Source of the DNA: Candidatus Woesearchaeota archaeon
Lineage (GTDB): Archaea > Nanobdellota > Nanobdellia > Woesearchaeales > JACPBO01
Direction: 5' to 3'
Length of the DNA stretch: 64,000 nt
Assembly: GCA_030651135.1 (NCBI GenBank)
Contig: JAUSCS010000006.1
Span: forward strand, 650,160 to 714,159
The notes below the pieces were generated by a model. That model searched no databases, had not been told where the DNA came from, and was given only the letters and a program-made list of their open reading frames with translations. Each line of letters begins with the position of its first letter. The first letter of the stretch is position 1. Made by a program: the position numbers and the translations under genes. Positions 3,181 to 48,052 of this stretch are shown here, piece by piece.

Positions 3181-4835
3181 GAAAGATTTAAGCTATCATA
3201 GATTTTCTCAAATAAAACCCCTTTTCTAAAAACAACGGGTGAGCCAGAACTTAAATCTATTATTGTTCCGCCTTTTCTTTCAGGATTTTGATATTTTGCA
3301 GGTTTTGAATCATAAATTATGTAATCAACATTATTGACCATTTGTACGGGCAGTTCTTCAAATACCGCACAATTTCCTTCTCCAGTATTATTGGCTGAAG
3401 ACCCGACAATTAAAACCTTGTCTTTCGTTGATAATTGCGCTAATGCTTCAATAACATTTCCAGGATTAAACGGAACTGCAATTTTTCCATCCTGCACCGT
3501 ATGATTCAATACCCACTCCGATAATGCGCCATACCATTGTCTAGATCTTGGGTTGATAGGAACTAAAAAAGAACACAGGTATCCTGCTTCTTTAATTGAC
3601 CGGATATATTTTTCATATGTTGGTATGGGCACATAAGTGACATCATCAAATATTTCTTGGTTATTTCCTATTACCATGCAAGGCTTATATTCAGGCCTTC
3701 CTTTTAATTCATACATCTTCTTTATGGCTTCTTCAGAATTTCCCAATAGCACATAACCAACATCTGAAGGAACTAAAATTAACCCGCCTTCTTTAAGAAC
3801 AGCATATGCCCTTTTAACCTCACGATCGACATTAGCATCACCTAACTCGCTACTTGAATATTTGCCTTGTTTCAATAGCCTTTCCCTCCCTACGTTGTTA
3901 GGATCAAACAATTCATAAGTGGCTGTATTTTTTAAGATGCCTTTTTGATGAGTTCCGCTTAAAGTCGTGAAGGATGTTTTCCCGACTACTGCTTTTTCAC
4001 AAGGAGAATCTCTCCCCAATACAGTATAAACCAATTTGCTTGTTCCAAAGAGCAATTTGGGCTTTATATTTGTTGTAAAATTATAAAAATCAGGCCTTGC
4101 GATTGAAGCAGCAATTATCTCTTCTAATGCGCAATTACCGCTTCGTTCCCCAACACCATTGATAGTTGTCTGTATTTCATCAACTCCTGCTTTGATTGCT
4201 GCCAGAGTATTTGCAACTGCTAATCCCAAATCATTATGCATATGAACACTTATTTTTAAAGAATCTTTAAAATGAGCTTTTATTTTTTTTATCAGATCTC
4301 TAAATTCTTCTGGCTGCGAATGACCTAAAGTATCAGCTATAACGATGCTATTCGCTCCTGCCTTTTTGGATTCTTCACATAATTTAACAAAGAAGGCATA
4401 ATCTGCTCTTGTTGCGTCCTCGATCCCAATAGCCACATCCTGAAATCTTTGTTTTGCGTATTGTGCTGCTTTAATGGTGTTTTCAATAGTTTGCTCTTTT
4501 GACCAACCCAGTTTATTAATCAGAATATCTGAACCAACAGTTGCTAATTCTATTTGAGCATTTTTGTTGGATTTTATGGCATAGTGGGCTGCATCAATAT
4601 CGGATTGATGTAATCTTGAAAATACGCACAACTTTGCATTTAAGTTAAGGCGGCTTATTTCTTGTGCAGCAAGATACTCCATATAACACGCTGCAGGAAA
4701 CCCTGCCTCAATTGTGTTTATGCCCAATTTATCCAGAGCCTTGGCTACCTCTATTTTCTGGGCAATAGTCATCCTGTTATTTGCTCCTTGCTCTCCGTCC
4801 CTGAGTGTTGTGTCGAAAATATTTACCTGTTTCAT
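3177..4835 (-). CDS. fusion protein: N-terminal HMGL-like (LeuA/homocitrate-synthase-type) TIM-barrel domain plus C-terminal YrdC/Sua5 (threonylcarbamoyl-AMP synthase-like) domain
   Basis: The N-terminus MKQVNIFDTTLRDGEQ...HMHNDLGLAVANTLAA matches the HMGL-like family. The C-terminus EGGLILVPSDVGYVLLGNSEEAIKKMYELKGRPEYKPCMVI...GGTIIDLSSGSPVVFRKG matches the YrdC fold. A single uninterrupted 552-aa frame. Confidence 0.65.
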   Translation of the reverse strand: MKQVNIFDTTLRDGEQGANNRMTIAQKIEVAKALDKLGINTIEAGFPAACYMEYLAAQEISRLNLNAKLCVFSRLHQSDIDAAHYAIKSNKNAQIELATVGSDILINKLGWSKEQTIENTIKAAQYAKQRFQDVAIGIEDATRADYAFFVKLCEESKKAGANSIVIADTLGHSQPEEFRDLIKKIKAHFKDSLKISVHMHNDLGLAVANTLAAIKAGVDEIQTTINGVGERSGNCALEEIIAASIARPDFYNFTTNIKPKLLFGTSKLVYTVLGRDSPCEKAVVGKTSFTTLSGTHQKGILKNTATYELFDPNNVGRERLLKQGKYSSSELGDANVDREVKRAYAVLKEGGLILVPSDVGYVLLGNSEEAIKKMYELKGRPEYKPCMVIGNNQEIFDDVTYVPIPTYEKYIRSIKEAGYLCSFLVPINPRSRQWYGALSEWVLNHTVQDGKIAVPFNPGNVIEALAQLSTKDKVLIVGSSANNTGEGNCAVFEELPVQMVNNVDYIIYDSKPAKYQNPERKGGTIIDLSSGSPVVFRKGVLFEKIYDSLNLS

Positions 4836-4941
4836 ATAATTACCGTACAGTAATTACATTTATTAAAGTATATAAATCTTTGTTGTAAATATAATTACTA
4901 CAAATAGAAACATTTAAAAGGCCGAGAATATATCCTGCATT

Positions 4942-5700
4942 ATGAGAGAAGATGTATTAAAGTCGCTTGGGCTTTCAGACAAAGAAGCCAAGACTTACAT
5001 TGTGCTGCTGGAACTTGGCCCTAGCTTAGCCAGCGAAGTGTCAAAAAAGACAGACATTCCAAGAACATTTACATATGACATTTTAAACGAGCTGATCAAG
5101 AAAGGACTGGCTTCTTACTTCATAAAAGAGAACAGAAAATACTTCAGGGCAACAGATCCTGAAAACCTAAAGACAGTGATAGAGCAGCAGAAGAGAATTC
5201 AATTATCGCTAATTTCAGAGGCATTGCCTGAATTAAATGAAATAAAATTCAAAGAGGCAGAAGAAAAGCCAAAAGTTGAATTGTATGAAGGAAAAGAAGG
5301 AGTTAAGACGATCCTGAACGATATCCTCAATACAAGGCCCAAAGAGATTCTTGTATATGGCGGCGTAGGCCAGTCAAGGGTCTTATTCCCAGTATTTATG
5401 AAACACTGGCATAAAAGAAGGCAGGAGCTTAAAATAAAGTTTAAGGTGATCTATAACAAAACAGAAGAGGCAGAGGAGAGGTTTAAAAAATTCAAGGAGG
5501 ATTACAAATATTCTGAGGTGAAGTTTCTGCCGCTCTCTTTTTTCTCCCCAACTGCAATGATAGTTTATAAAAACAAGGTTGCCCTTACTGTGTGGACCAA
5601 ATATCCTTTTGGGATTTTGATACAAAGCAGCGAAATCTCAGAAAATTATAAAAAGAGATTTGAATATTTATGGGAAATGGCAAGTAAAATCATCAAATGA
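4942..5700 (+). CDS. TrmB-family transcriptional regulator
   Basis: N-terminal wHTH LGLSDKEAKTYIVLLELGPSLASEVSKKTDIPRTFTYDILNELIKKGL, typical of TrmB. Confidence 0.65.
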   Translation: MREDVLKSLGLSDKEAKTYIVLLELGPSLASEVSKKTDIPRTFTYDILNELIKKGLASYFIKENRKYFRATDPENLKTVIEQQKRIQLSLISEALPELNEIKFKEAEEKPKVELYEGKEGVKTILNDILNTRPKEILVYGGVGQSRVLFPVFMKHWHKRRQELKIKFKVIYNKTEEAEERFKKFKEDYKYSEVKFLPLSFFSPTAMIVYKNKVALTVWTKYPFGILIQSSEISENYKKRFEYLWEMASKIIK

Positions 5701-5708
5701 GATAAAAA

Positions 5709-7127
5709 ATGACCCAAAACTTTACAAGCGACATTGTGATCGGCCTTGAAATTCACGTTGAATTAAACACAAAAACAAAATTATTCTGCGGCTGCGCAAC
5801 AAAAGGCAATGAAGATCCGAATACAAGAACCTGCCCGACATGCCTGGGCCATCCAGGGAGCAAGCCAGTATTAAACCAGGATGCGCTTGAATTTGCATTG
5901 AAGCTCTGCATTGCCCTTGACGCAGATGTTTCGCCGGAAATTGTCTTTTCAAGAAAATCGTATTTCTATCCTGATATGTCAAAGAATTTTCAGATAACGC
6001 AGTATGAAGTTCCTCTTGCAAAAGACGGGAAATTAAAGCTGAAAGCCGGGAAAACAATCGGAATAGCAAAATTGCATCTTGAGGAAGATCCTGCTTCCCT
6101 TGTCCATATCGGGTCAATGCAACAGTCTCCTTTTGTTCTGGTTGATTACAACAGAAGCGGCAACCCTCTTGTTGAGGTTGTTACAAAGCCCGAGCTTGAA
6201 AGCCCGGAAGAAGCTCGCGACTTTATGAACCAGCTCATTTCAATATTGGCATATTTGAGGATTTTTGACATCAACAATGGGATAATAAAAGCAGATGCAA
6301 ATGTTTCAATAAGGGAGAGCGGCTATGTAAGGGCAGAAGTTAAGAATATAACTGGATTCAAGGACATTGAGAGAGCATTGAGTTATGAAGTTGAAAGGCA
6401 GAAGAAGGAAATCGAAGAAGGCAAAAAATTAAAGCAGGAGACAAGGGCATGGGATTCTGAAAAAGGAATTACATTTTTGCTGAGAACAAAAGAAACAGAA
6501 GAGGATTACGGCTACATAATTGAGCCTGATTTAACAAGGATCGAGATAAGCAGCGAACTAGTTGAAAGAATAAAAGAAGCAATGCCGGAATTGGCGCATG
6601 AAAAGGCGAAGCGTTTTGCCTCGCAATACAAGATAAAGAAAGAAGATGCTGAAGTGCTGGCTCAGGAATTTATGCTTGCAAAGCTTTATGAGCAGGTCGC
6701 AAAGGAAATTGACCCTCTGTTGGCTGCAAAATGGCTGAGAAGGGAATTGCCAAGGGTTCTGAATTATATCAAAAAGGATTTAGAGGAAGTTGAACTTGAT
6801 GAAACGCATATAATTGACCTGCTCGATCTGGTTGAGAAAAAGGTTATAACAGAACAGGTTGCTCAAAGATTATTGGAAAAATTAGTTGAATCTCCTTTTG
6901 ATGTAAAAAAATATGTTAAAGATCAAGGCATGGAAGCTGTTTCTGACAAAAAAGAGCTTGAAAAGTTCTGCATTGAAGCTATTGCAGAGAATCCAAAGGC
7001 AGTTGAAGACTATAAAAAAGGCAATGAAAAGGCGCTGAACTTCATTGTCGGATCAGTCATGAAGAAAACAAAAGGGAAGGCAACTCCTGTTGAAGTTAAT
7101 GAGATATTGAAGAAGCTGGTAAAATAA
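5709..7127 (+). CDS. gatB: Asp/Glu-tRNA amidotransferase subunit B
   Basis: GatB N-terminus IGLEIHVELNTKTKLFCGC...CPTCLGHPGSKP and a GatB/YqeY C-terminal domain; 472 aa. Confidence 0.85.
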   Translation: MTQNFTSDIVIGLEIHVELNTKTKLFCGCATKGNEDPNTRTCPTCLGHPGSKPVLNQDALEFALKLCIALDADVSPEIVFSRKSYFYPDMSKNFQITQYEVPLAKDGKLKLKAGKTIGIAKLHLEEDPASLVHIGSMQQSPFVLVDYNRSGNPLVEVVTKPELESPEEARDFMNQLISILAYLRIFDINNGIIKADANVSIRESGYVRAEVKNITGFKDIERALSYEVERQKKEIEEGKKLKQETRAWDSEKGITFLLRTKETEEDYGYIIEPDLTRIEISSELVERIKEAMPELAHEKAKRFASQYKIKKEDAEVLAQEFMLAKLYEQVAKEIDPLLAAKWLRRELPRVLNYIKKDLEEVELDETHIIDLLDLVEKKVITEQVAQRLLEKLVESPFDVKKYVKDQGMEAVSDKKELEKFCIEAIAENPKAVEDYKKGNEKALNFIVGSVMKKTKGKATPVEVNEILKKLVK

Positions 7128-7217: not shown

Positions 7218-8033
7218 ATGGTAGAATTGATCAGCAAAATAAGCAAAGGAAGCAGGATGGATCAGGTGTATATCCCGAAAAACAGGTCAGATTTTGCCAT
7301 AGGCAGCTATGTTGTGATAAAGCCGCTGGAAACTATGCCTGAAGAAGTGCTTAAGCCTTTTTTTTATAATATTAAATATCTGGAGCCGATAAAACTTAAA
7401 ATAGTGGAAGAGGTCTTTAAAAATATAGGAATGCTTGTCAAATTCGATAACATAATAATAACAGGCTCTTTTTTGGAAGAAGGGTTTAGATTTAATGATA
7501 TAGACATCATACTTGTCAGCGAAAATAAAATCGATGCAAAACTTATCGAAGCTTCTTTAAAGGAGAAAATTGGAATTGGATTTCATGTAAGTGCTATGAG
7601 CAACAAAGCTTTATTAAAGGGCATTTCCACAGATCCCTTATATCGCGCCATGCTGACTAAATGCGTTTCCAGTAAAAGGCTGATTTATAAAATACGCCCT
7701 GAAATAAACTATAAATTGCTAGACTTGCATCTTCTGAAAAGCAAGCCATTAATAGAAAACTTCGAGTTTTTAACAGGCGACGAAAAGTACAAAATAACAA
7801 GAAACCTTGTTGCCATACGCTTATTTATCGATAAAAAAGAAATAACCAAAAATAAAATAGATTCGGCTATTGATAACATTTTTGGCAGCAAAACAGTCCA
7901 GAAATTAAAAGAAAACATTGTTTTAAAAGAAGATTTTTTGGCTAAGTACAAGAAGCTTTATAAAGGTACTTTGAATAAGATTTTAGAGGGTATAAAGAAT
8001 GAGCCAAAACAAAAGGAGACTGAAGTAATTTAA
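7218..8033 (+). CDS. hypothetical protein, possible minimal nucleotidyltransferase fold
   Basis: GSFLEEGFRFNDIDIILVS resembles the GS...D.D nucleotidyltransferase motif; this is weak. Confidence 0.35.
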   Translation: MVELISKISKGSRMDQVYIPKNRSDFAIGSYVVIKPLETMPEEVLKPFFYNIKYLEPIKLKIVEEVFKNIGMLVKFDNIIITGSFLEEGFRFNDIDIILVSENKIDAKLIEASLKEKIGIGFHVSAMSNKALLKGISTDPLYRAMLTKCVSSKRLIYKIRPEINYKLLDLHLLKSKPLIENFEFLTGDEKYKITRNLVAIRLFIDKKEITKNKIDSAIDNIFGSKTVQKLKENIVLKEDFLAKYKKLYKGTLNKILEGIKNEPKQKETEVI

Positions 8034-33675: not shown

Positions 33676-33739
33676 AAAAATGCATAAGGTTTTTAAATGA
33701 AAACAAACAACACATTAAAACAGAGGGGTGAAATTAAAA

Positions 33740-34450
33740 ATGGCAGCAATAAAACATAAAACTAAGTTAAAGGAAACAATAAACAAATTGAGTATTTGGC
33801 TGATAGTTGTTATCGCTTTACTTGTTGTTTTTAATCAATGGCAGATATCGGGCATAGCATCGAGATTTGCAGCAACAGGCATTTCGACAACATCAAGCTC
33901 TACAACGTCTGGCAGCACAGCAGTAAGTTCATCAAATCTTCAAAGTTCTGTTATTCCGACAGGAGTTCCGAGAATTTACGGAGCAGAGTTTGGCTTAAGC
34001 TATGATGATATTTCTTCGAATGATGCAAGAAAGACACAGGCAGCAATAAATAAGATGGGGGTTTATGATAAGTCAATCACACTGACAGGAGATGATTTGC
34101 AGCGCTATATAGCTGTCGGCATGCAAATAAGCTGTGAATATTGCTGCGGAGCTGAGGCAATTATCTTTAAAAATGGAGCTGCGGCATGCGGTTGCGCCCA
34201 CAGCGGTGCAATGCGCGGATTGGCAAAATACCTGATAAGCAAGCATCCGAATGATTTCACAAACGACGAAATCCTGGAAGAGCTTGGAAAATGGAAAACA
34301 CTGTTCTTCCCAGGCATAATGACTCAGAAAGCTGCGGTATTGCAGTCCAAGGGAATTGAGTTTAATTACATAAACCTTGCTTCAAACAAATACAGGGGAA
34401 TAGAGAAAGGAGCAACATCATCTGGCGGGGCAATGGTGGGAGGCTGTTAA
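33740..34450 (+). CDS. membrane-anchored Ser/Thr-rich protein with CEYCCG/CGCAHS Cys cluster and C-terminal MVGGC
   Basis: SD (GAGGGGTGA) precedes MAAIKHK. TM helix, S/T stalk, ...ISCEYCCGAEAII...AACGCAHSGAMRG..., ending ...GGAMVGGC. Confidence 0.5.
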   Translation: MAAIKHKTKLKETINKLSIWLIVVIALLVVFNQWQISGIASRFAATGISTTSSSTTSGSTAVSSSNLQSSVIPTGVPRIYGAEFGLSYDDISSNDARKTQAAINKMGVYDKSITLTGDDLQRYIAVGMQISCEYCCGAEAIIFKNGAAACGCAHSGAMRGLAKYLISKHPNDFTNDEILEELGKWKTLFFPGIMTQKAAVLQSKGIEFNYINLASNKYRGIEKGATSSGGAMVGGC

Positions 34451-34451
34451 G

Positions 34452-34721
34452 ATGGATAAAAAAATAACAGTAATTGTCGTCCTGCTGTCAGTCATCATGA
34501 TAGTTTCGTTTATTCAGGCATTCCAACTGATGGATATCAAGGCCAAGCTATCTGTAGCAGGTCTTGCAACAGGCGGAAGCGCAGCAAACGGCAAGCTCGA
34601 CACAACAGGATGGACAGAGAACGAAAAAATGAATTATGAAATGCATGGAACCATTCCTGCAAGAATCGGGCAAGGCAGCAGTTCAGGATCTAGTGCATCA
34701 TCAATGGTAGGAGGCTGCTAA
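34452..34721 (+). CDS. small membrane-anchored protein ending in MVGGC (family member 2)
   Basis: MDKKITVIVVLLSVIMIVSFIQAFQL...SSMVGGC. Starts 1 nt after the upstream stop. Confidence 0.5.
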   Translation: MDKKITVIVVLLSVIMIVSFIQAFQLMDIKAKLSVAGLATGGSAANGKLDTTGWTENEKMNYEMHGTIPARIGQGSSSGSSASSMVGGC

Positions 34722-34764: not shown

Positions 34765-34962
34765 ATGGACAAGAACATAATAATAGCGATTGTGTTGGGC
34801 GTTTTATTGCTCGTATCTGTTGTGCAGGCATTTGAGCTGAACACAATAAAAACAAAGCTGAGCAGCGGAACAGTTGCAGTTTCAGGTGCAACTACAACAT
34901 CTTCAAGTGCAGCATCTGCGTCAGCATCAAGCTCATCCGGCGGAATGGTTGGCGGTTGTTAG
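34765..34962 (+). CDS. small membrane-anchored protein ending in MVGGC (family member 3)
   Basis: MDKNIIIAIVLGVLLLVSVVQAFEL...SSSSGGMVGGC. SD AAGGAGGAAA upstream. Confidence 0.5.
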   Translation: MDKNIIIAIVLGVLLLVSVVQAFELNTIKTKLSSGTVAVSGATTTSSSAASASASSSSGGMVGGC

Positions 34963-36493: not shown

Positions 36494-37126
36494 ATGTTTT
36501 ATAATGGCATAATAAGTGCGCTTTATGATTTTGAAATCAGGCTCTTTTTGCTTTTTTTAGGAGGCGAGAAAAGGCTAAGGGAAGCTGCAGCAAATGCTGT
36601 TGATATCGGGCATGCAAAAAACACATTAGATGTTTTTTGCGGCACAGGAACATTGACAAGCCTGATTGCAGAAAAAACCAAAGGCAATGTTTTTGGGGTG
36701 GATCTGTCAGAAAATATGATAAGAAGAGCCAGGAAAAAAACAAGCTCCAAAAACACAAAATACATTGTTGCCGATGCAAAAAATATCCCCTTTGAAGACA
36801 ATTACTTTGATATTGCATTCGAATCCCTGGGCCTGCACGAATTAAAATTCAAAGACAGAAATAAGGCAATAGCAGAGATTTACAGGACATTGAAAAAAGG
36901 AGGCACAGCGGTTTTTGTTGAATATGTGAAGCCAAAAAAACAAACAGTCATATTTTTAATATTGAAGTGCATTGAAACAATAATTGACAGGGAAGCCATT
37001 GACGACTTTTTCAGCAGGGATTTTCAAAGTCATTTGGAATACCATAAGTTTAAAGTTATCAATAAAATTCCTGTGCTGAAAGGTTATGCCAACATATTTG
37101 TGGCTAAAAAATCATATAGCAAATGA
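36494..37126 (+). CDS. class I SAM-dependent methyltransferase (UbiE/Methyltransf_11-like)
   Basis: LDVFCGTGTLTSLIA...GVDLSENMIRRARKK. Confidence 0.6.
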   Translation: MFYNGIISALYDFEIRLFLLFLGGEKRLREAAANAVDIGHAKNTLDVFCGTGTLTSLIAEKTKGNVFGVDLSENMIRRARKKTSSKNTKYIVADAKNIPFEDNYFDIAFESLGLHELKFKDRNKAIAEIYRTLKKGGTAVFVEYVKPKKQTVIFLILKCIETIIDREAIDDFFSRDFQSHLEYHKFKVINKIPVLKGYANIFVAKKSYSK

Positions 37127-37170
37127 CACAAATTTTTATACAATATATGAATGTCATTTGCTTATTACGA

Positions 37171-37204
37171 GCGGACAACTATTTGTATAAAAACTATTGT
37201 CCGC
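37171..37204. promoter_or_regulatory. inverted repeat GCGGACAA-N18-TTGTCCGC enclosing a TATA box (TTTGTATAAAAAC); candidate repressor operator/promoter of the micro-ORF-methyltransferase unit
   Basis: Perfect 8-bp arms at 37171-37178 and 37197-37204. The TATA lies in the loop; SD GAGGTG at 37221; ATG at 37231. Confidence 0.4.
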
Positions 37205-37230
37205 GAGTATAAATGCAGATGAGGTGCAAA

Positions 37231-37260
37231 ATGGGAAAAGGCAAAAAAGGATGCTGCTAG
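37231..37260 (+). CDS. SD-led micro-ORF MGKGKKGCC (9 aa)
   Basis: ATG GGA AAA GGC AAA AAA GGA TGC TGC TAG preceded by GAGGTG. The same peptide is encoded at 42353. Confidence 0.35.
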   Translation: MGKGKKGCC

Positions 37261-37289: not shown

Positions 37290-37904
37290 ATGGAAAAAAA
37301 TGGGTGGGACAGAATATATAAAGAAAACAGCCTGAAAAAAATTCCCTGGCATACTGAACAGCCTGAAAAAAATCTTGTGAAGCTTGTTGAGCAGGGGAAA
37401 ATCAAGCCAGGAGAAGTTCTTGACATGTGCTCGGGAGCAGGGACAAACTCTATTTATCTGGCTTCAAAGGGGTTTAAGGTTACAGGAGTTGACGTATCCC
37501 CTACAGCAGTAAAGATAGCAAAAGAAAGGTGCCTGAGAAAAGGCGTGGCTTGCAATTATCTTATGGGCAAGGTATTGAAATTCAAGACAAACAAAAAATT
37601 TGACTTTATTTTTGACAGAGGATGCTTTCACCATATTCCGGATAAAGACAAGCCAAAATATGTTAAAAGGCTTATTAATGTATTGAAGGGCAATGGCAGG
37701 GTTTACATCCAGTGCTTCAGCGATAAAAATCATTTTGACAAAAGCATTTCAAAGGAGGACATTTTAAGGTATTTTTCAGGCCCTTTTAAAATAGCCCATA
37801 TTAAAGAATCCATTCACACAGAGCCCGGCGGGGGAAAAATATACATGCACAATGTTTTTATGAAGAAAAAGAAAAACTTGGATTTTAATCGATCTCAAAA
37901 ATAA
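37290..37904 (+). CDS. SAM-dependent methyltransferase (TPMT/TehB-like)
   Basis: VLDMCSGAGTNSIYLASKGFKVTGVDVSPTAV. Confidence 0.6.
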   Translation: MEKNGWDRIYKENSLKKIPWHTEQPEKNLVKLVEQGKIKPGEVLDMCSGAGTNSIYLASKGFKVTGVDVSPTAVKIAKERCLRKGVACNYLMGKVLKFKTNKKFDFIFDRGCFHHIPDKDKPKYVKRLINVLKGNGRVYIQCFSDKNHFDKSISKEDILRYFSGPFKIAHIKESIHTEPGGGKIYMHNVFMKKKKNLDFNRSQK

Positions 37905-37924: not shown

Positions 37925-38416
37925 ATGAAAGAAACTTTAAAAAATCTGAATAATGCATCAAAAAGTGTATTGATTGTTTTAGTCATTATTGCTGTATATT
38001 TTTTATTGTTCCCGTTTATAGGCTCGTTTTTTATACGAGAACAAACTCCTATGATGCAAGGAATGAGCGAGATGATGGGAGCTAATATAATGAGTTCTTC
38101 TTCAATAAGCTCAATTACAATAAACCTTATTTCACTCATTTTTGCTTTAGGTTTAGGATTTCTTGCCTCGTTGTACTTATTTAAGATGAAGATAGAAGAT
38201 AAAGAATATAAAATTTTAAGAAAAGCATTGTCAGACGATAAAAAGAAGATTTTTGATGAGATTAAAAAGGCGGGTGAAATAACACAAGATTCACTAAGAT
38301 TTAGGCTAAACTGGAGTAAATCTAAAGTTTCAACTATTTTAACAGATCTTGACAAGATGAATTTAATTCAAAGAGAGAGGGTTGGAAAGACATATAAAGT
38401 GTATTTACAAAAATGA
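37925..38416 (+). CDS. membrane-anchored winged-HTH protein (paralog of 31279 and 51522)
   Basis: Two TM helices, then KKKIFDEIKKAGEITQDSLRFRLNWSKSKVSTILTDLDKMNLIQRERVGKTYKVYL. Confidence 0.5.
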   Translation: MKETLKNLNNASKSVLIVLVIIAVYFLLFPFIGSFFIREQTPMMQGMSEMMGANIMSSSSISSITINLISLIFALGLGFLASLYLFKMKIEDKEYKILRKALSDDKKKIFDEIKKAGEITQDSLRFRLNWSKSKVSTILTDLDKMNLIQRERVGKTYKVYLQK

Positions 38417-39223: not shown

Positions 39224-39670
39224 ATGGATATTAAGTATAAAGCAACAAGAAACGGCATTATAGGAATTTTGTTGATTGTGGTATTGAACATCATAATACT
39301 TTGGAGCCTTGGATTCCCAGCAATGGCTGTTGCGCAGATCAAGAAATACTCTCCTTTGCTTGTCTTGCTGATTGGCGGATTTGGTTTCCAGATAAGTCTT
39401 TTCACTTATCTGAGGCACAAGAGCGCAATTGGCTGCACAACAACAGTTGCATCAGGCGGATTATCCACAACAAGCATGATACTGTGCTGCAGCCATTATC
39501 TTGTGAATATACTGCCTTTCATAGGAGTATCAGCGCTGGCTTCCCTTTCAGGCTATACGGTTTGGTTTATTTTAATAGGAATACTCTCTAATGCCGCAGG
39601 CATTGCAATAATGCTTTACAAAAGCAAAGGCGAAAAAAACAAAATTAGATTAAAAAAGAGAAAGAAATAA
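39224..39670 (+). CDS. integral membrane protein (4 TM) with Cys pairs
   Basis: Hydrophobic; CTTTVASGG...MILCCSHY; basic C-terminal tail. Confidence 0.4.
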   Translation: MDIKYKATRNGIIGILLIVVLNIIILWSLGFPAMAVAQIKKYSPLLVLLIGGFGFQISLFTYLRHKSAIGCTTTVASGGLSTTSMILCCSHYLVNILPFIGVSALASLSGYTVWFILIGILSNAAGIAIMLYKSKGEKNKIRLKKRKK

Positions 39671-41385: not shown

Positions 41386-41532
41386 ATGGCAGACAAGCAA
41401 TTTTTCAGATGCACTGTGTGCAACGACATACATTATGGAATGGCTGGCCCCGAGTTATGCCCGACATGCAAGCAGGTCAATGTGTATGTAAAAATCGACA
41501 TAAGTGAAGCAAGAAAGATTATGAAACTTTAG
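41386..41532 (+). CDS. rubredoxin-like zinc-ribbon protein (48 aa)
   Basis: ORF below the track cutoff: MADKQFFRCTVCNDIHYGMAGPELCPTCKQVNVYVKIDISEARKIMKL. SD GAGGTG upstream. Confidence 0.5.
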   Translation: MADKQFFRCTVCNDIHYGMAGPELCPTCKQVNVYVKIDISEARKIMKL

Positions 41533-41539
41533 GGAAATA

Positions 41540-41824
41540 ATGAACAAAGAAGAAGTAATAAAAGTCTGGGGTGAATTCTGTAAAAGCAACGGAACATTTG
41601 AGCTAAACCCAGACAAAAAGCATGTTGAAATTGTTGCTGACGGCATATTATCTAATGAAAAGAAGCATGGATTGAAGTTCTGCCCATGCAGATTGAGAGA
41701 TGGGACATTTGAGAAGGACCTTGAGCTTATATGCCCCTGTAACTTTTTTATTCATGAAACATGGCTGAGGCCTAATCCGGGAATGCAGCCAATGTGCTGG
41801 TGCGGGCTGTTCGTAAAGGCATAA
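41540..41824 (+). CDS. ferredoxin-thioredoxin reductase catalytic-subunit-like protein
   Basis: Spacing ...C...CPC...CPC...CHC/CWC, seen here as FCKSNG...FCPCR...ICPCNFFIHE...CWCGLF. Confidence 0.55.
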   Translation: MNKEEVIKVWGEFCKSNGTFELNPDKKHVEIVADGILSNEKKHGLKFCPCRLRDGTFEKDLELICPCNFFIHETWLRPNPGMQPMCWCGLFVKA

Positions 41825-41844: not shown

Positions 41845-41868
41845 AACATATGCTTATCTTAACATATG
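41845..41868. promoter_or_regulatory. twin AACATATG elements (each with a self-complementary CATATG core) 16 bp apart, overlapping the arsR start; candidate ArsR operator. A TATA (TTTATAAAT) lies about 25 bp upstream, implying a leaderless transcript
   Basis: AACATATG at 41845-52 and 41861-68; the second copy contains the arsR ATG. Confidence 0.35.
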
Positions 41869-42168
41869 ATTAAAAAAGCATATAAAACATTCTTCGGGAC
41901 GCTGGACAATGAAAGAAGGCTGGAAATAATAAACATATTGAGAAAAGCGCCTAAATGCGTTTCCGAGATATGCAAGATGCTTGATTCCAATCAAACCACT
42001 GTATCGCACAATCTTAAAAGGCTTGAGAGGTGCGGCTTTGTTTTTGTAGAGAGGAAAGGGAAGCACAGGTATTATTCGCTGAATAAAAAAACAATAAAGC
42101 CCCTGATGGATCTTATAGACAAGCACATGCACGAATTTTGCGAGAAAATAGTGGCGGGTGAAAGATAA
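41866..42168 (+). CDS. arsR: ArsR/SmtB-family metalloregulator
   Basis: wHTH ...CVSEICKMLDSNQTTVSHNLKRLERCGFV.... Confidence 0.75.
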   Translation: MIKKAYKTFFGTLDNERRLEIINILRKAPKCVSEICKMLDSNQTTVSHNLKRLERCGFVFVERKGKHRYYSLNKKTIKPLMDLIDKHMHEFCEKIVAGER

Positions 42169-42329
42169 TGGTGGTGGAAGAGGCAAAGGCCGGCAAACCA
42201 TATTATGTTTGTGAAGAATGCAGTTTCGCTTACGAAGGCAAGAAATGGGCTGAAAAATGCCAGAAGTGGTGCAAAGAGCATCACAGCTGCAATACAGGGA
42301 TCGCAAAGCACGCTGTAATGAAATCGTAA
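42168..42329 (+). CDS. 53-aa Cys/His-rich putative metal-binding protein
   Basis: MVVEEAKAGKPYYVCEECSFAYEGKKWAEKCQKWCKEHHSCNTG.... Start overlaps the arsR stop (TAATG). Confidence 0.45.
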   Translation: MVVEEAKAGKPYYVCEECSFAYEGKKWAEKCQKWCKEHHSCNTGIAKHAVMKS

Positions 42330-42352
42330 AACTATTTAAGGAGGTGAAAAAG

Positions 42353-42382
42353 ATGGGGAAAGGAAAGAAGGGGTGCTGCTAA
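42353..42382 (+). CDS. SD-led micro-ORF MGKGKKGCC (9 aa), identical peptide to 37231
   Basis: GGAGGTG sits 8 nt upstream. The stop TAA abuts the ATG of the next gene. Confidence 0.35.
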   Translation: MGKGKKGCC

Positions 42383-42637
42383 ATGAAGAAAATCTCCAGC
42401 AAAAAAAGAACAGCTGAAGAAGGCTGCAAAAGCGTAAAGCACGCAAAGGGCATAACGATGCTGGTGTGTTGCTTGATAGTTATGGTTTTATTAATTGCAG
42501 CTGTATATTTTTTTGGGATTGGCAGGAATTACTCATATTGGCTTATTTTGTTGTTGTGCCCTCTGATGCATTTCTTCATGATGAGAGATATGCATAATAA
42601 ACCTCCCAAAAAGGGAAATGGAGATAAATGTCATTAA
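42383..42637 (+). CDS. small membrane protein with CPLMH motif, as in small heavy-metal-operon membrane proteins
   Basis: MKKISSKKRTAEEGCKS...LLLCPLMHFFMMRDMH...GDKCH. Confidence 0.4.
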   Translation: MKKISSKKRTAEEGCKSVKHAKGITMLVCCLIVMVLLIAAVYFFGIGRNYSYWLILLLCPLMHFFMMRDMHNKPPKKGNGDKCH

Positions 42638-42701: not shown

Positions 42702-42878
42702 ATGGGTTGGTTTGATAAATATTGCGAGAAATGCGGAATGAAAGTGGATAAGAAGACAGCGCCCCAGCGTTTTGGCAAATATTTTTGCTCAGATGAGCAT
42801 GCAGAAACATATGCAAAAGAGGTAGAAGAAATGAGAAAGAAAATGCCAAAACAGCAAAGCAGTGGCGGTTGTTGCTAG
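42702..42878 (+). CDS. TRASH/YHS-domain metal-binding protein (58 aa) ending in GGCC
   Basis: CEKCGMKVDKKTAPQRFGKYFCSDEH is the TRASH pattern. C-terminus ...QQSSGGCC; SD AAGAGGTG. Confidence 0.55.
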   Translation: MGWFDKYCEKCGMKVDKKTAPQRFGKYFCSDEHAETYAKEVEEMRKKMPKQQSSGGCC

Positions 42879-42879
42879 A

Positions 42880-43431
42880 ATGAGACTAAAAGGAAAAACA
42901 ATGGTGTTGGGTGTGTGTGGTGGAATTGCGGCATATTGGGCTGCAGAGATTATTGGCGTGCTTAAGAATGAAGAGGCAGATGTTTATGTTGTAATGACCG
43001 AGAACGCTGCCAAGTTCATAGCGCCTTTGACACTGCAAACGCTTTCAAAGAATAAAGTAGTTATAGACATGTTTGAGCTTCCTGTAGAATTAGATATCAG
43101 CCATATCACATATGCGAAAAAAGCAGACTTAATGCTGGTTGCTCCAGCAACTGCTAATTTTATCGGAAAAGTTGCGAACGGCATAGCTGATGATATGCTG
43201 ACAGCAACCATAATGGCAACAAAAGCTCCAGTGATCATAGCCCCGGCTATGAATGAAAATATGTGGAATAATAAAATTCTGCAAAAAAATATTGGGATAT
43301 TAAAGCAGGCTGATTTCAAGATCATTAATCCTGAATATGGCAAAATGGCTTGCGGCGGGGAAGGGAAAGGCACTCTTGCCAGCATTGAGAAAATAATGAA
43401 AGAAATTGGAAGATTAAAAGAGGAGAATTGA
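42880..43431 (+). CDS. HFCD-family flavoprotein (CoaC/EpiD-like cysteine decarboxylase), stand-alone
   Basis: MVLGVCGGIAAYWA...VAPATANFIGKVANGIADDMLT. ATG 1 nt after the TRASH stop; the track used a GTG at 42862. Confidence 0.65.
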   Translation: MRLKGKTMVLGVCGGIAAYWAAEIIGVLKNEEADVYVVMTENAAKFIAPLTLQTLSKNKVVIDMFELPVELDISHITYAKKADLMLVAPATANFIGKVANGIADDMLTATIMATKAPVIIAPAMNENMWNNKILQKNIGILKQADFKIINPEYGKMACGGEGKGTLASIEKIMKEIGRLKEEN

Positions 43432-45143: not shown

Positions 45144-45629
45144 ATGAATAGAATAAAACAAAGCCTGAATGGAATAAACTGCGTATTAGGCAATTGGGTC
45201 TATTTGATGATTTTTATAGTTTTTACCATGGTCTTTTTATCAATCTACATTTTTGCATGGAACTTTATTTTGCTGTCAAACTTTTATGTAAGAATAGATC
45301 TATGGACGCCATTGAATTTGTTGTTTTTAATAACTATTTCAATTTTATCGGGTATGATTTTGGCATTAAATATTTATGTTCTTAAATCAAACTGGTCTTT
45401 ACATAAAAAAGCCCATGGTTATTTTGCGCTAATACCTGCTTTGTTCACATCAGTCTGCCCAACATGCGCCCCTCTGCTTTTGTCTTTTTCAAGCACGACA
45501 ATCGGCATTGGCATGCTGATATCCGGCTTTAATATTTTTGTTAATGCATTTATTGTTCTGTTACTTGGTTTGATCTTGATAAACATATCATCAAATTTAA
45601 ACAGTTGCAAAATAAAGGCTAAAAAATGA
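45144..45629 (+). CDS. integral membrane protein with intramembrane CPTC motif; stop overlaps the copA start
   Basis: [14 protein letters not shown]; 4 TM helices. Confidence 0.4.
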
Positions 45630-48052
45630 AAACAACAATCAAGATAACAGGAATGCACTGCGCAAGCTGCGCAAATACAATAGAGAAAGCCTTAAAGAGA
45701 GCAAAAGGCGTGATCAATACAAATGTGAATTTTGCAACAGAAAAAGCAACTGTTGAATTCGATGAAAATAAAACAAATCAGGAAGGCGTTGAAAAAACAA
45801 TAGAAAAAACAGGCTATAAAATAATAAAGGAAGAAAAAGAAAGCAAAACAGGTGAAAAAGGTATTTCCGAGATAAAATTAAAAATCATCGGCATGGACAA
45901 TCCGCATTGTGTAGCCACAGTAAGCGGCGCATTAAGCGCAATAAAAGGCATTGTCTCAAAAGAGCTTTTAGTTAACCAGAAAGCGGCAATAAAGTATGAT
46001 CCCGTTCTGACAAGCATCAATGAAATCAAGAAAGCAATAAAAAATTCAGGCTACGAGCCAATTGAAGAAACTGCATCAGTTGACAAGGAGAAGGAAGCAA
46101 GGCAGAAAGAGATCAGAAGGCTGCAAATAGAGGTTTTTCTCGGGTTTTTATTGAGCATCCCTATTTTCATACTTTCTTTTCCTGAATGGTTCAAGATAAT
46201 TGTGCCTTATGCAAATTACGTTTTGTTTATATTGACAACTCCTGTACAGCTGGCAATCGGAAGAAGATTCTATGCCGGAATGTGGATCGCTTTAAAAAAC
46301 AAAAGCGCAAACATGGACACTTTGATTGCAGTAGGCACAAGCGCAGCCTATATTTACAGCGCTCTTGTGACTTTTATTCCAAATACCTTCAAAGGAGCTG
46401 TTTATTATGACACAGCAGCCATTATTATAACTTTCATTCTTTTAGGCAAACTGCTGGAAGCAGTGATGAAAGGCAAAACATCAGAAGCAATAAAAAAGCT
46501 GATGGGCCTGCAGGCTAAGACAGCAATGGTCGTAAGGAACGGCAAAGAAATTGGGATCAACATTGATGATGTTGCTGTCGGCGATATTGTTGTTATCAGG
46601 CCAGGTGAAAAAATCCCGGTTGACGGCGTTGTAATTGAAGGCCATTCAGCAGTTGACGAATCAATGATCTCCGGGGAAAGCATTCCTGTTGAAAAGAAAA
46701 TCGGCGACAATGTGATTGGAGCAACAATAAACAAGAACGGAGCTTTGAAGTTCAAGGCAACTAAAGTTGGAAAAGATACTGTTTTAGCTCAGATCATAAA
46801 ATTAGTTGAGGAAGCCCAAGGCAGCAAAGCTCCAATACAAAGAGTGGCTGACAAAGTAAGCAGCTATTTTGTTCCTGCTGTAATAATAATTGCAGTTGCA
46901 GCTTTCATTATTTGGCTATTAGCTGGCCAGAGTTTTGTATTTTCATTGAGCATATTCATTGCAGTTTTGATTATTGCATGCCCATGCGCACTTGGCCTGG
47001 CAACTCCGACTGCAATAATGGTTGGATCTGGAAAAGGAGCTGAAAACGGCATCTTAATAAAATCAGGCGAAGCACTTGAAACAGCCCATAAACTGACAAC
47101 AATTGTCTTTGACAAGACAGGAACATTGACAAAAGGAAAGCCCGAAGTTACGAAGATCGTTTCTGTTTCGAATTTATCTGAGAGGGAAATCATAAGATTC
47201 GCAGGCATTGCAGAGAAAAATTCAGAGCATCCTCTTGCAGAAGCAATTGTGAAGAAATGCGACGAACTGAAAATAAAGCTTACCGGCGCCTCATCTTTTA
47301 TTGCAGTTCCTGGAAAAGGCGTTAAAGCAAAGTACAAAGATGAAGAAATCATAATAGGCAACAGAAAAATGATGGAAAATTTTCCGTTAAAGCTTATAGA
47401 TCCGAAAATCGTTGAGCTTGAGAATTTGGGCAATACTGTTATGCTCATTGCGCTAAGGAACAGGGTTATTGGCATGGTTGCAGTTGCAGATACATTGAAA
47501 GAATATTCCAAAGAAGCAGTTGAGCAGCTTCATAAGATGAAAAAGGAAGTCATCATGATAACTGGCGACAACAAAAGAACGGCAGAAGCAATTGCAAAGC
47601 AGATCGGCATTGGCAAAGTTTTAGCAGAAGTGCTGCCTGAAGACAAGGAAAAAGAAGTAAAGAAGCTGCAGCATGCTGGAGAAGTTGTTGCATTTGTCGG
47701 AGATGGCATAAATGATGCGCCTGCTCTTGCGCAGGCAGATATAGGCATAGCAATTGGCGCAGGAACAGATGTTGCTTTGGAAACAGGGAATATTGTTTTG
47801 ATCAAAAACGATTTAAGAGATGTTGTTACTGCCATTGACCTAAGCGCTTATACAATAAGGAAGATAAGGCAGAATCTGTTTTGGGCATTTTTTTATAATA
47901 CTGCCGGCATTCCGATTGCAGCAGGAATTTTATATCCTTTCACGGGATTTTTGCTGAATCCGATAATAGCTGCTGCGGCAATGGCATTCAGCAGCGTGAG
48001 TGTTGTCGGGAATTCATTGTTTATGAGATTGTATAAGGCAAAGATAAAATGA
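45626..48052 (+). CDS. copA: Cu(I)-translocating P1B-type ATPase
   Basis: Two HMA domains (GMHCASC and an HMA-like domain), CPC motif [28 protein letters not shown]. Confidence 0.9.

Follow-up and report, generated by a model that had tools for sequence, protein, structure and literature searches.

A family of tiny, predicted cysteine-tailed peptide genes in archaea

Adjacent cysteine pairs are used by several systems to handle soft metals and metalloids. In the mercury system, an adjacent Cys-Cys carried by a flexible terminal segment captures and hands over the metal: vicinal Cys pairs bind Hg(II) in MerA, for which the C-terminal pair is required (PMC8261052). CC pairs are also present in MerT and MerF. 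Vicinal cysteines likewise bind As(III) in the arsenic metallochaperone ArsD and in an ArsR, within a resistance operon that contains ArsR (PMC2440759). ArsD is, however, a folded protein of about 120 residues with three binding cysteines. Metallothioneins, which are typically at least about 25 residues long, carry many Cys residues in CxC, CC or CxxC motifs that form metal-thiolate clusters, and phytochelatins are made enzymatically; both are small, Cys-based, metal-buffering peptides encoded or induced in metal stress contexts. Glutathione, which is made without ribosomes, works with glutaredoxin, and large thioredoxin reductases carry a C-terminal GCUG/SCCS redox tail that is covalently part of the enzyme. 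Genes of fewer than 10 codons are also documented, such as mccA, the 7-codon gene of the microcin C precursor, whose strong ribosome-binding site and close terminator yield an abundant short transcript and a rarer read-through into enzyme genes (PMC4231749). MccA is modified at a C-terminal Asn by a dedicated, always adjacent enzyme and becomes an antibiotic. Finally, upstream ORFs and leader peptides are very short, lie behind a strong Shine-Dalgarno site and sometimes overlap the next start codon.

The locus described here encodes a nine-residue peptide, MGKGKKGCC, and lies in a stretch of 64,000 nucleotides (the window) from a Candidatus Woesearchaeota MAG. A protein of the window is 100% identical to one from a Candidatus Woesearchaeota MAG, and the gene content is archaeal, with HerA-like and CDC48/PAN-like ATPases, DUF7343 winged-helix proteins and a weak, sub-threshold match to the 'PACE-CTERM' putative S-layer protein model. 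A sequence-only reading had pointed to two copies of a nine-codon ORF, one of them with a strong Shine-Dalgarno site, upstream of a TPMT-like methyltransferase and preceded by a TATA box inside a perfect 8-bp inverted repeat. This observation is correct in all these respects. That reading had proposed peptide-level conservation and repressor control, an interpretation that is only partly supported, since the conservation goes further than proposed whereas the palindrome is not part of the conserved unit. The features of the first copy and its surroundings are the following.

36494-37126 (+), UbiE/MenG-like SAM methyltransferase upstream of copy 1
37116-37211, insertion of about 96 nt relative to the closest relative, carrying both inverted repeats
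37118-37162, perfect 11-bp inverted repeat AGCAAATGACA (37118-37128) / TGTCATTTGCT (37152-37162) with a 23-nt spacer, overlapping the stop codon of the upstream gene
37171-37204, perfect 8-bp inverted repeat GCGGACAA (37171-37178) / TTGTCCGC (37197-37204) with an 18-nt spacer
37182-37193 (+), TATA-box-like TTTGTATAAAAA inside the 8-bp repeat, a candidate archaeal promoter element (inferred only) about 40 nt before the ATG
37221-37226 (+), Shine-Dalgarno site GAGGTG of copy 1, 4 nt before the ATG
37231-37260 (+), micro-ORF copy 1, ATG GGA AAA GGC AAA AAA GGA TGC TGC TAG
37290-37904 (+), TPMT/TehB-like SAM methyltransferase, 29 nt downstream of copy 1 (Pfam TPMT, PF05724, 62.7 bits against a cut-off of 26, 5e-17; TehB, PF03848, 3.4e-8)

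The second copy lies about 5 kb further, in a run of genes headed by an ArsR-family regulator.

41386-41824 (+), rubredoxin-like gene plus ferredoxin-thioredoxin-reductase-beta-like gene (PF21349, PF02943), a candidate disulfide reductase
41866-42168 (+), ArsR-family regulator (PF01022, 4.5e-15), first gene of the run that contains copy 2
42168-42329 (+), 53-residue Cys/His-rich protein, 23 nt upstream of copy 2, used as the anchor family for the comparative search
42340-42346 (+), Shine-Dalgarno site GGAGGTG of copy 2, 6 nt before the ATG
42353-42382 (+), micro-ORF copy 2, ATG GGG AAA GGA AAG AAG GGG TGC TGC TAA
42383-42637 (+), DUF2933-like membrane protein (PF11666, 7.3e-7), whose ATG abuts the micro-ORF stop codon (TAAATG), with a CC pair in its first hydrophobic segment and a CPLMH motif
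42702-42878 (+), 58-residue Cys-rich protein ending in ...SSGGCC
42862-43431, PF02441 flavoprotein, CoaC-like
45626-48052 (+), 808-residue P-type ATPase of the island with HMA and E1-E2_ATPase domains, here read as CopA-type

Both copies lie in a single island of metal and thiol genes (roughly 32.7-48.7 kb), which also includes a membrane-anchored winged-helix protein (37925-38416), a Met-rich protein, a cupredoxin, a CDGSH protein and a DsbA-like protein. ArsR, DUF2933, the cupredoxin and the HMA/E1-E2 P-type ATPase were identified by Pfam and NCBIfam, whereas the Met-rich protein is read from its translation. The two copies differ at 5 coding positions plus the stop codon, and all the differences are synonymous third positions. 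The degenerate back-translation of the peptide matches the window exactly twice, against 0 matches in all 100 shuffles, and no other short ORF of the window resembles it.

The exact peptide was absent from the GTDB species representatives (0 hits), in which the clade is not represented, and loose DNA patterns searched on viral contigs returned only out-of-frame chance matches inside a phage gene. However, the peptide occurs once in JGI metagenomes (locus L001), and following the homologues of the neighbouring genes led to three further loci, L003, L004 and L024, the last from a second Woesearchaeota MAG. As the micro-ORF of L004 and its flanks match those of L024 exactly, both were counted as one lineage. 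This gives eight copies from four lineages in three different contexts: before the TPMT-like gene (window, L003 at 1165 and L024 at 4706), between the 53-residue gene and DUF2933 (window, L003 at 3971, L004 at 343 and L024 at 10181), and about 50 nt after the homologous CopA-type ATPase gene in L001, where the micro-ORF stands alone and is followed by a small hairpin and a T-run and then by a convergent gene. The flanks of the three context types are unrelated, apart from GAGGTGCAA at the Shine-Dalgarno site, which is shared by copy 1 and the copies of L024 and L001, that is by the first and third contexts.

The six distinct DNA haplotypes differ at seven positions (6, 12, 15, 18, 21, 27 and 30), every one of them a synonymous third codon position. 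As 19-26% of single changes would be synonymous, the probability that the six sites inside codons 2-9 are all synonymous under neutrality is 5e-5 to 3e-4. A difference in frame between relatives had been named beforehand as a ground for rejecting peptide-level conservation, but the ATG, the frame and the stop codon are kept in every copy, and all copies have a strong Shine-Dalgarno site. Furthermore, the in-frame upstream ATGs of copy 1 are out of frame in L024, so the conserved unit is the nine-codon ORF. The link to the TPMT-like gene holds only in the closest clade, since homologues of this gene at 62% identity or less have no micro-ORF; similarly, homologues of DUF2933 at 57% identity or less lack the identical peptide.

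An alignment of the 53-residue family retrieved 80 further loci (908 kb) from Woesearchaeota, Pacearchaeota, Aenigmarchaeota, Micrarchaeota, Thorarchaeota, Methanosarcinales, Bathyarchaeia, Dehalococcoidia and CPR bacteria. Scanning them for short ORFs revealed diverged relatives, only in archaea, all with an ATG and a strong Shine-Dalgarno site. They are given here by locus.

L038, MGKGKSKGCC, twice; the two paralogues differ only synonymously and have unrelated flanks
L057, MPKGKGKGCC
L071, MEKGKKGKGCC
L048, MGRGKGCC
L060, MGPKKRKKRGCC
L044, MAKKKKDRCC
L028, MGGDGCC
L043, MAKGKGKGCGC
L048, MTKAKGKGCGC
L059, MGKGKCNTC

Of 5768 ATG micro-ORFs of 7-13 residues in these loci, 18 end in CC: 8 of the 14 that are K/G/R-rich and have a Shine-Dalgarno site, against 10 of the 5754 others (Fisher p = 4e-18). 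None of the family members is in a bacterial locus. CC is the C-terminus in every copy of the close clade and in 8 diverged members. The peptides of the family have 7-12 residues and are mostly rich in Lys, Arg and Gly. The family signature is M, then a flexible and usually cationic stretch, then G-C-C-stop or, less often, Cys-Gly-Cys. The distribution of the family is patchy, since it was found in 5 of about 25 Woesearchaeota loci within 8 kb of the anchor gene. No NCBIfam model matches the peptides, even when they are padded to 20 residues, no Rfam family matches anywhere in the window, and literature searches on DUF2933, CC-tail peptides, DPANN thiols and the MVGGC ending found nothing describing this family, which appears to be undescribed.

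The members of the family lie in islands for soft-metal detoxification and thiol-disulfide chemistry. In L048, the micro-ORF starts 45 nt after a full-length MerA (TIGR02053, 489.6 bits against a cut-off of 454), which keeps its own C-terminal CC, and a DsbD_TM protein follows. In L060, a diverged peptide precedes a DUF2933-like gene that is 47% identical to that of the window; both DUF2933 proteins have a CC pair in the first hydrophobic segment and a CPL(M/L)H motif. A YruB-type glutaredoxin-like gene lies downstream in L043, L048, L059 and L071, that is 4 of the 11 such genes in the set, and is followed by a thioredoxin-reductase-like gene in L043 (TIGR01292, 1.9e-98) and by a homologous 325-residue ORF in L048, although no such pair lies next to the copies of the window. 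Other neighbours are AhpC/redoxin, DUF302, a YgaP-like membrane protein, thioredoxin-like proteins and an ArsP-type permease. As the loci were reached through a metal-island anchor gene, this association is partly a result of ascertainment and is not an unbiased estimate.

Several copies have the sequence hallmarks of stand-alone mini-genes. Indeed, 7 of 18 copies are followed by an oligo-T run 1-21 nt after the stop codon, and most intergenic copies have an A/T box of at least 8 nt located 30-45 nt before the ATG, an organization that fits an archaeal TATA box, a short leader with the Shine-Dalgarno site, 7-12 codons and an oligo-T terminator. In L043 and L048, a 12-bp hairpin begins inside the ORF and is followed by UUUUAUUAUCUUUUU. 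Other copies sit inside operons, such as copy 2.

The 8-bp inverted repeat upstream of copy 1 is unique in the window, with 0 expected by chance. The sequence-only reading had missed the 11-bp repeat just upstream and the fact that both repeats, each wrapped around a TATA-like run, sit in an insertion that relatives lack. Indeed, a three-way alignment shows that about 96 nt are absent from L024, the closest relative, in which the micro-ORF starts 18 nt after the stop codon of the UbiE-like methyltransferase, whereas L003 has a different upstream gene, an unrelated upstream region and no repeat. The 8-bp repeat was found in no other organism's locus among those fetched, and it therefore lacks the conservation with the regulated unit that is expected of an ArsR/SmtB-type operator. 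The arms of the 11-bp repeat recur with a 20-nt spacer in the Woesearchaeota locus L071 (7178-7219), between convergent genes. Apart from this, the insertion has no second copy in the window or in the other loci, and its reading as a repeated mobile element was rejected. No intrinsic terminator and no sigma-70-type promoter were detected in this intergenic stretch, the one promoter match of the scanned region lying at 36956-36984. If transcribed, both repeats would form hairpins (z = -3.2), a result that cannot separate a DNA role from an RNA role. Repressor control is therefore a possible lineage-specific addition, which may give this copy its own regulated promoter.

Globally, these data establish that purifying selection acts on the peptide itself, that the family exists and that its members lie among metal and thiol-redox genes, with the ascertainment caveat given above; translation, the existence of the free peptide, metal binding and any exchange with partner proteins are inferred from sequence and context alone. 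The most likely product, with a rough probability of 0.45, would be a soluble, flexible and cationic peptide presenting a terminal vicinal dithiol in the cytoplasm. In this view, the dithiol would bind thiophilic metals or metalloids such as Cu(I), Hg(II) or As(III) and buffer them or pass them to island proteins (the CopA-type ATPase, the DUF2933 membrane protein with its own CC pair, MerA and the methyltransferases), while the neighbouring glutaredoxin-like, thioredoxin-reductase-like or ferredoxin-disulfide-reductase-like proteins would keep it reduced. Where the micro-gene has its own AT-rich box and an oligo-T or hairpin terminator, it would be made in excess over the downstream enzymes, as expected for a stoichiometric ligand. 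However, one Cys pair is a minimal site, and Cu(I) or As(III) would need two or more peptides, or a partner protein. A bolder reading, which is not excluded but remains unlikely, is that the peptide is a ribosomally encoded low-molecular-weight thiol, a gene-made stand-in for glutathione in DPANN archaea with poor biosynthetic capacity. It would be produced in bulk from mini-transcripts, cycle between dithiol and vicinal disulfide, be reduced by the adjacent enzymes, and serve both as a redox buffer and as the thiol ligand presenting Hg, Cu, As, Se or Te to MerA, to the CopA-type ATPase and to the methyltransferases.

Alternatively, the ORF could be translated but act in cis, as a leader or coupling cistron that loads ribosomes for the next gene or tunes it, either through termination-reinitiation at TAAATG or through stalling at the two Cys codons when cysteine is depleted by thiophilic metals, the released peptide having no function. 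Indeed, the stop codon of copy 2 abuts the DUF2933 start in the window, L003 and L024, and copy-2-type sequences always use GGG for Gly7, which creates an SD-like AAGGGGTG 7 nt before the next ATG, so that a coupling role may coexist with any peptide role in this copy. Furthermore, the stop codon overlaps the start of the next gene in L044 (TAATG), and copy 1 lies 29 nt before the TPMT-like gene with a conserved spacer. Neither abutment nor overlap is found for copy 1 or for the stand-alone copies. However, the same peptide precedes unrelated genes or none at all, as in L001, 7 of 18 copies are followed by oligo-T runs, and more distant homologues of the downstream genes lack the ORF. In addition, a cis-acting role explains neither the identical Lys/Gly residues across paralogues with unrelated flanks nor the retention of the GCC end across diverged members. 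This explanation is unlikely as the main one, and the data do not fit a leader peptide of one gene.

Even less likely is a role as substrate for chemistry on the C-terminal cysteines, whether as a minimal RiPP-type precursor (oxidative decarboxylation by an HFCD flavoprotein, as for EpiD/CypD) or through S-lipidation anchoring a polybasic tail to the membrane. It was prompted by the PF02441 flavoprotein gene, located 480 nt downstream of copy 2 and overlapping the end of the gene whose product finishes in ...GGCC, and other island proteins end in ...MVGGC; MccA provides a precedent for a 7-residue ribosomal precursor (PMC4231749). However, the flavoprotein fits CoaC far better (coaBC 1.5e-62, coaC 1.4e-54) than the CypD peptide decarboxylase (2.8e-11), and its translation carries an ACGGEGKG stretch typical of phosphopantothenoylcysteine decarboxylases. 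No flavoprotein appears among the listed genes flanking the micro-ORFs in the other loci, and no candidate modifying enzyme travels with the micro-ORF across its contexts. An analogy with N-myristoylation or Rab-like prenylation (MG..., polybasic, CC end) was also rejected, because residue 2 varies (G, P, A, E, T), so that N-terminal Gly lipidation is not conserved, and no transferase is found in the context. Lastly, the ORF is very short, A/G-rich and SD-like inside, and is not called as a gene in any of the locus listings examined, so it could be a purine-rich RNA or DNA element, such as a ribosome-binding enhancer or a fragment of a repeat, that happens to be readable. This is very improbable given the synonymous third-position changes, the preserved ATG, frame and stop codon, and the diverged members, which change length and sequence but keep M...GCC-stop behind a Shine-Dalgarno site, together with the absence of any Rfam match.

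If translated, these would be among the shortest protein-coding genes with evidence of peptide-level selection, and they are missed by gene callers, none being called in the locus listings examined. They would add a new, minimal component to archaeal metal and thiol homeostasis, in a phylum, Woesearchaeota (DPANN), known only from metagenomes and for which a review of archaeal thiols says little about low-molecular-weight thiols beyond scattered GshA homologues (PMC7278568). More generally, short conserved ORFs in resistance islands deserve systematic searches.

Compared with the systems presented above, the family shares with the mercury proteins an adjacent Cys-Cys at a flexible terminus, and one member sits directly after a bona fide merA, but the CC tail is here predicted to be a free 7-12-residue peptide with its own gene rather than part of an enzyme or transporter, and its metal binding is only inferred. 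As for ArsD and the ArsR sensors, the vicinal cysteines lie in the context of an ArsR gene, which heads the run containing copy 2, but the micro-peptide has no sequence relationship to ArsD. Unlike metallothioneins, it has a polybasic body and a single CC motif, with 2 Cys in 9 residues. Like mccA, it is encoded by fewer than 10 codons behind a strong ribosome-binding site, and L043 and L048, where the hairpin plus U-run starting inside the ORF precedes a glutaredoxin-like gene and a thioredoxin-reductase-like gene or its homologue, recall its close terminator, but no enzyme partner comparable to that of MccA exists here. A small thiol peptide or flexible dithiol tail working with glutaredoxin-fold proteins and pyridine-nucleotide disulfide reductases is reminiscent of glutathione and of the thioredoxin-reductase tail, since such genes adjoin the micro-ORF in 4 loci, although a redox role of this peptide remains hypothetical. 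Finally, the micro-ORFs resemble upstream ORFs and leader peptides by their size, their Shine-Dalgarno site and the occasional overlap with the next start codon, but their peptide sequence is conserved across unrelated downstream genes and in stand-alone units.

In total, 19 of 4610 ORFs of at least 50 residues end in the motif ...[G/S]MVGGC followed by the stop codon. These ORFs were found in the window (33728-34450, 34452-34721 and 34765-34962) and in nine of the loci retrieved for comparison (L024, L028, L044, L060, L061, L074, L081, L093 and L103). They fall into two families, each displaying an N-terminal hydrophobic segment that resembles a membrane helix. The proteins of one family have about 210-250 residues and carry a CxxCC...CGC motif, whereas those of the other have about 65-95 residues, are low in complexity and end in ...NLQNLP[G/S]MVGGC. 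These genes co-occur with the CC micro-ORFs in five loci and, in L044, the stop codon of the micro-ORF overlaps the start of such a gene. A literature search on this motif did not retrieve any description of it.

The region located downstream of the second micro-ORF copy of the window includes two further overlapping genes:

42702-42878, a 58-residue Cys-rich protein ending in ...SSGGCC
42862-43431, a stand-alone CoaC-like flavoprotein

The Cys-rich protein displays a CxxC...FCSDEH pattern that can be read as TRASH/YHS-like, although only weak, sub-threshold family matches were obtained. The last codons of its gene overlap the start of the flavoprotein gene, which is followed by a gene encoding a membrane protein of the carotenoid synthase family. 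This is an odd place for an enzyme of CoA biosynthesis.

A different Cys-rich short ORF, MCDSCGCGGSSPPKAR, was detected in L045, another locus from Woesearchaeota, at 7661-7711. It has a Shine-Dalgarno-like site (AGGAGTGA), follows an ArsR-like gene and begins about 85 nt before the point where the alignment to a glutaredoxin-like gene starts. It may be a further kind of micro-peptide gene, but it could also have arisen by chance.

The 11-bp inverted repeat AGCAAATGACA/TGTCATTTGCT is shared by two different Woesearchaeota, with a spacer of 23 nt in the window (37118-37162) and of 20 nt in the locus L071 (7178-7219), where it lies between convergent genes. It could be an operator, an RNA hairpin or a small repeated element.

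Furthermore, a recurrent family of membrane proteins without any Pfam match, which carry a conserved ...CC(x)H(H/Y)...P motif, appears in the same islands (window 39224-39670; L057 6695-7267; L001 7375-8277), once, in L057, directly after a micro-ORF. In L001, a metagenomic locus, the CopA-type ATPase gene located next to the stand-alone micro-ORF (4055-6669, minus strand) is split into two overlapping ORFs of 562 and 335 residues, which reflects either a frameshift or pseudogene, or an assembly error.

The DUF2933-like proteins (window 42383-42637; L060 5027-5230) carry a CC pair in their first hydrophobic segment (MLVCCLI) and a CPL(M/L)H motif in the second one, an arrangement that resembles the cysteine pairs of small mercury transporters. 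In addition, the adjacent rubredoxin-like (41386-41532) and ferredoxin-thioredoxin-reductase-beta-like (41540-41824) genes of the window, which are located just upstream of the ArsR run that contains the second micro-ORF copy, look like a split version of the ferredoxin:disulfide reductase of methanogens.
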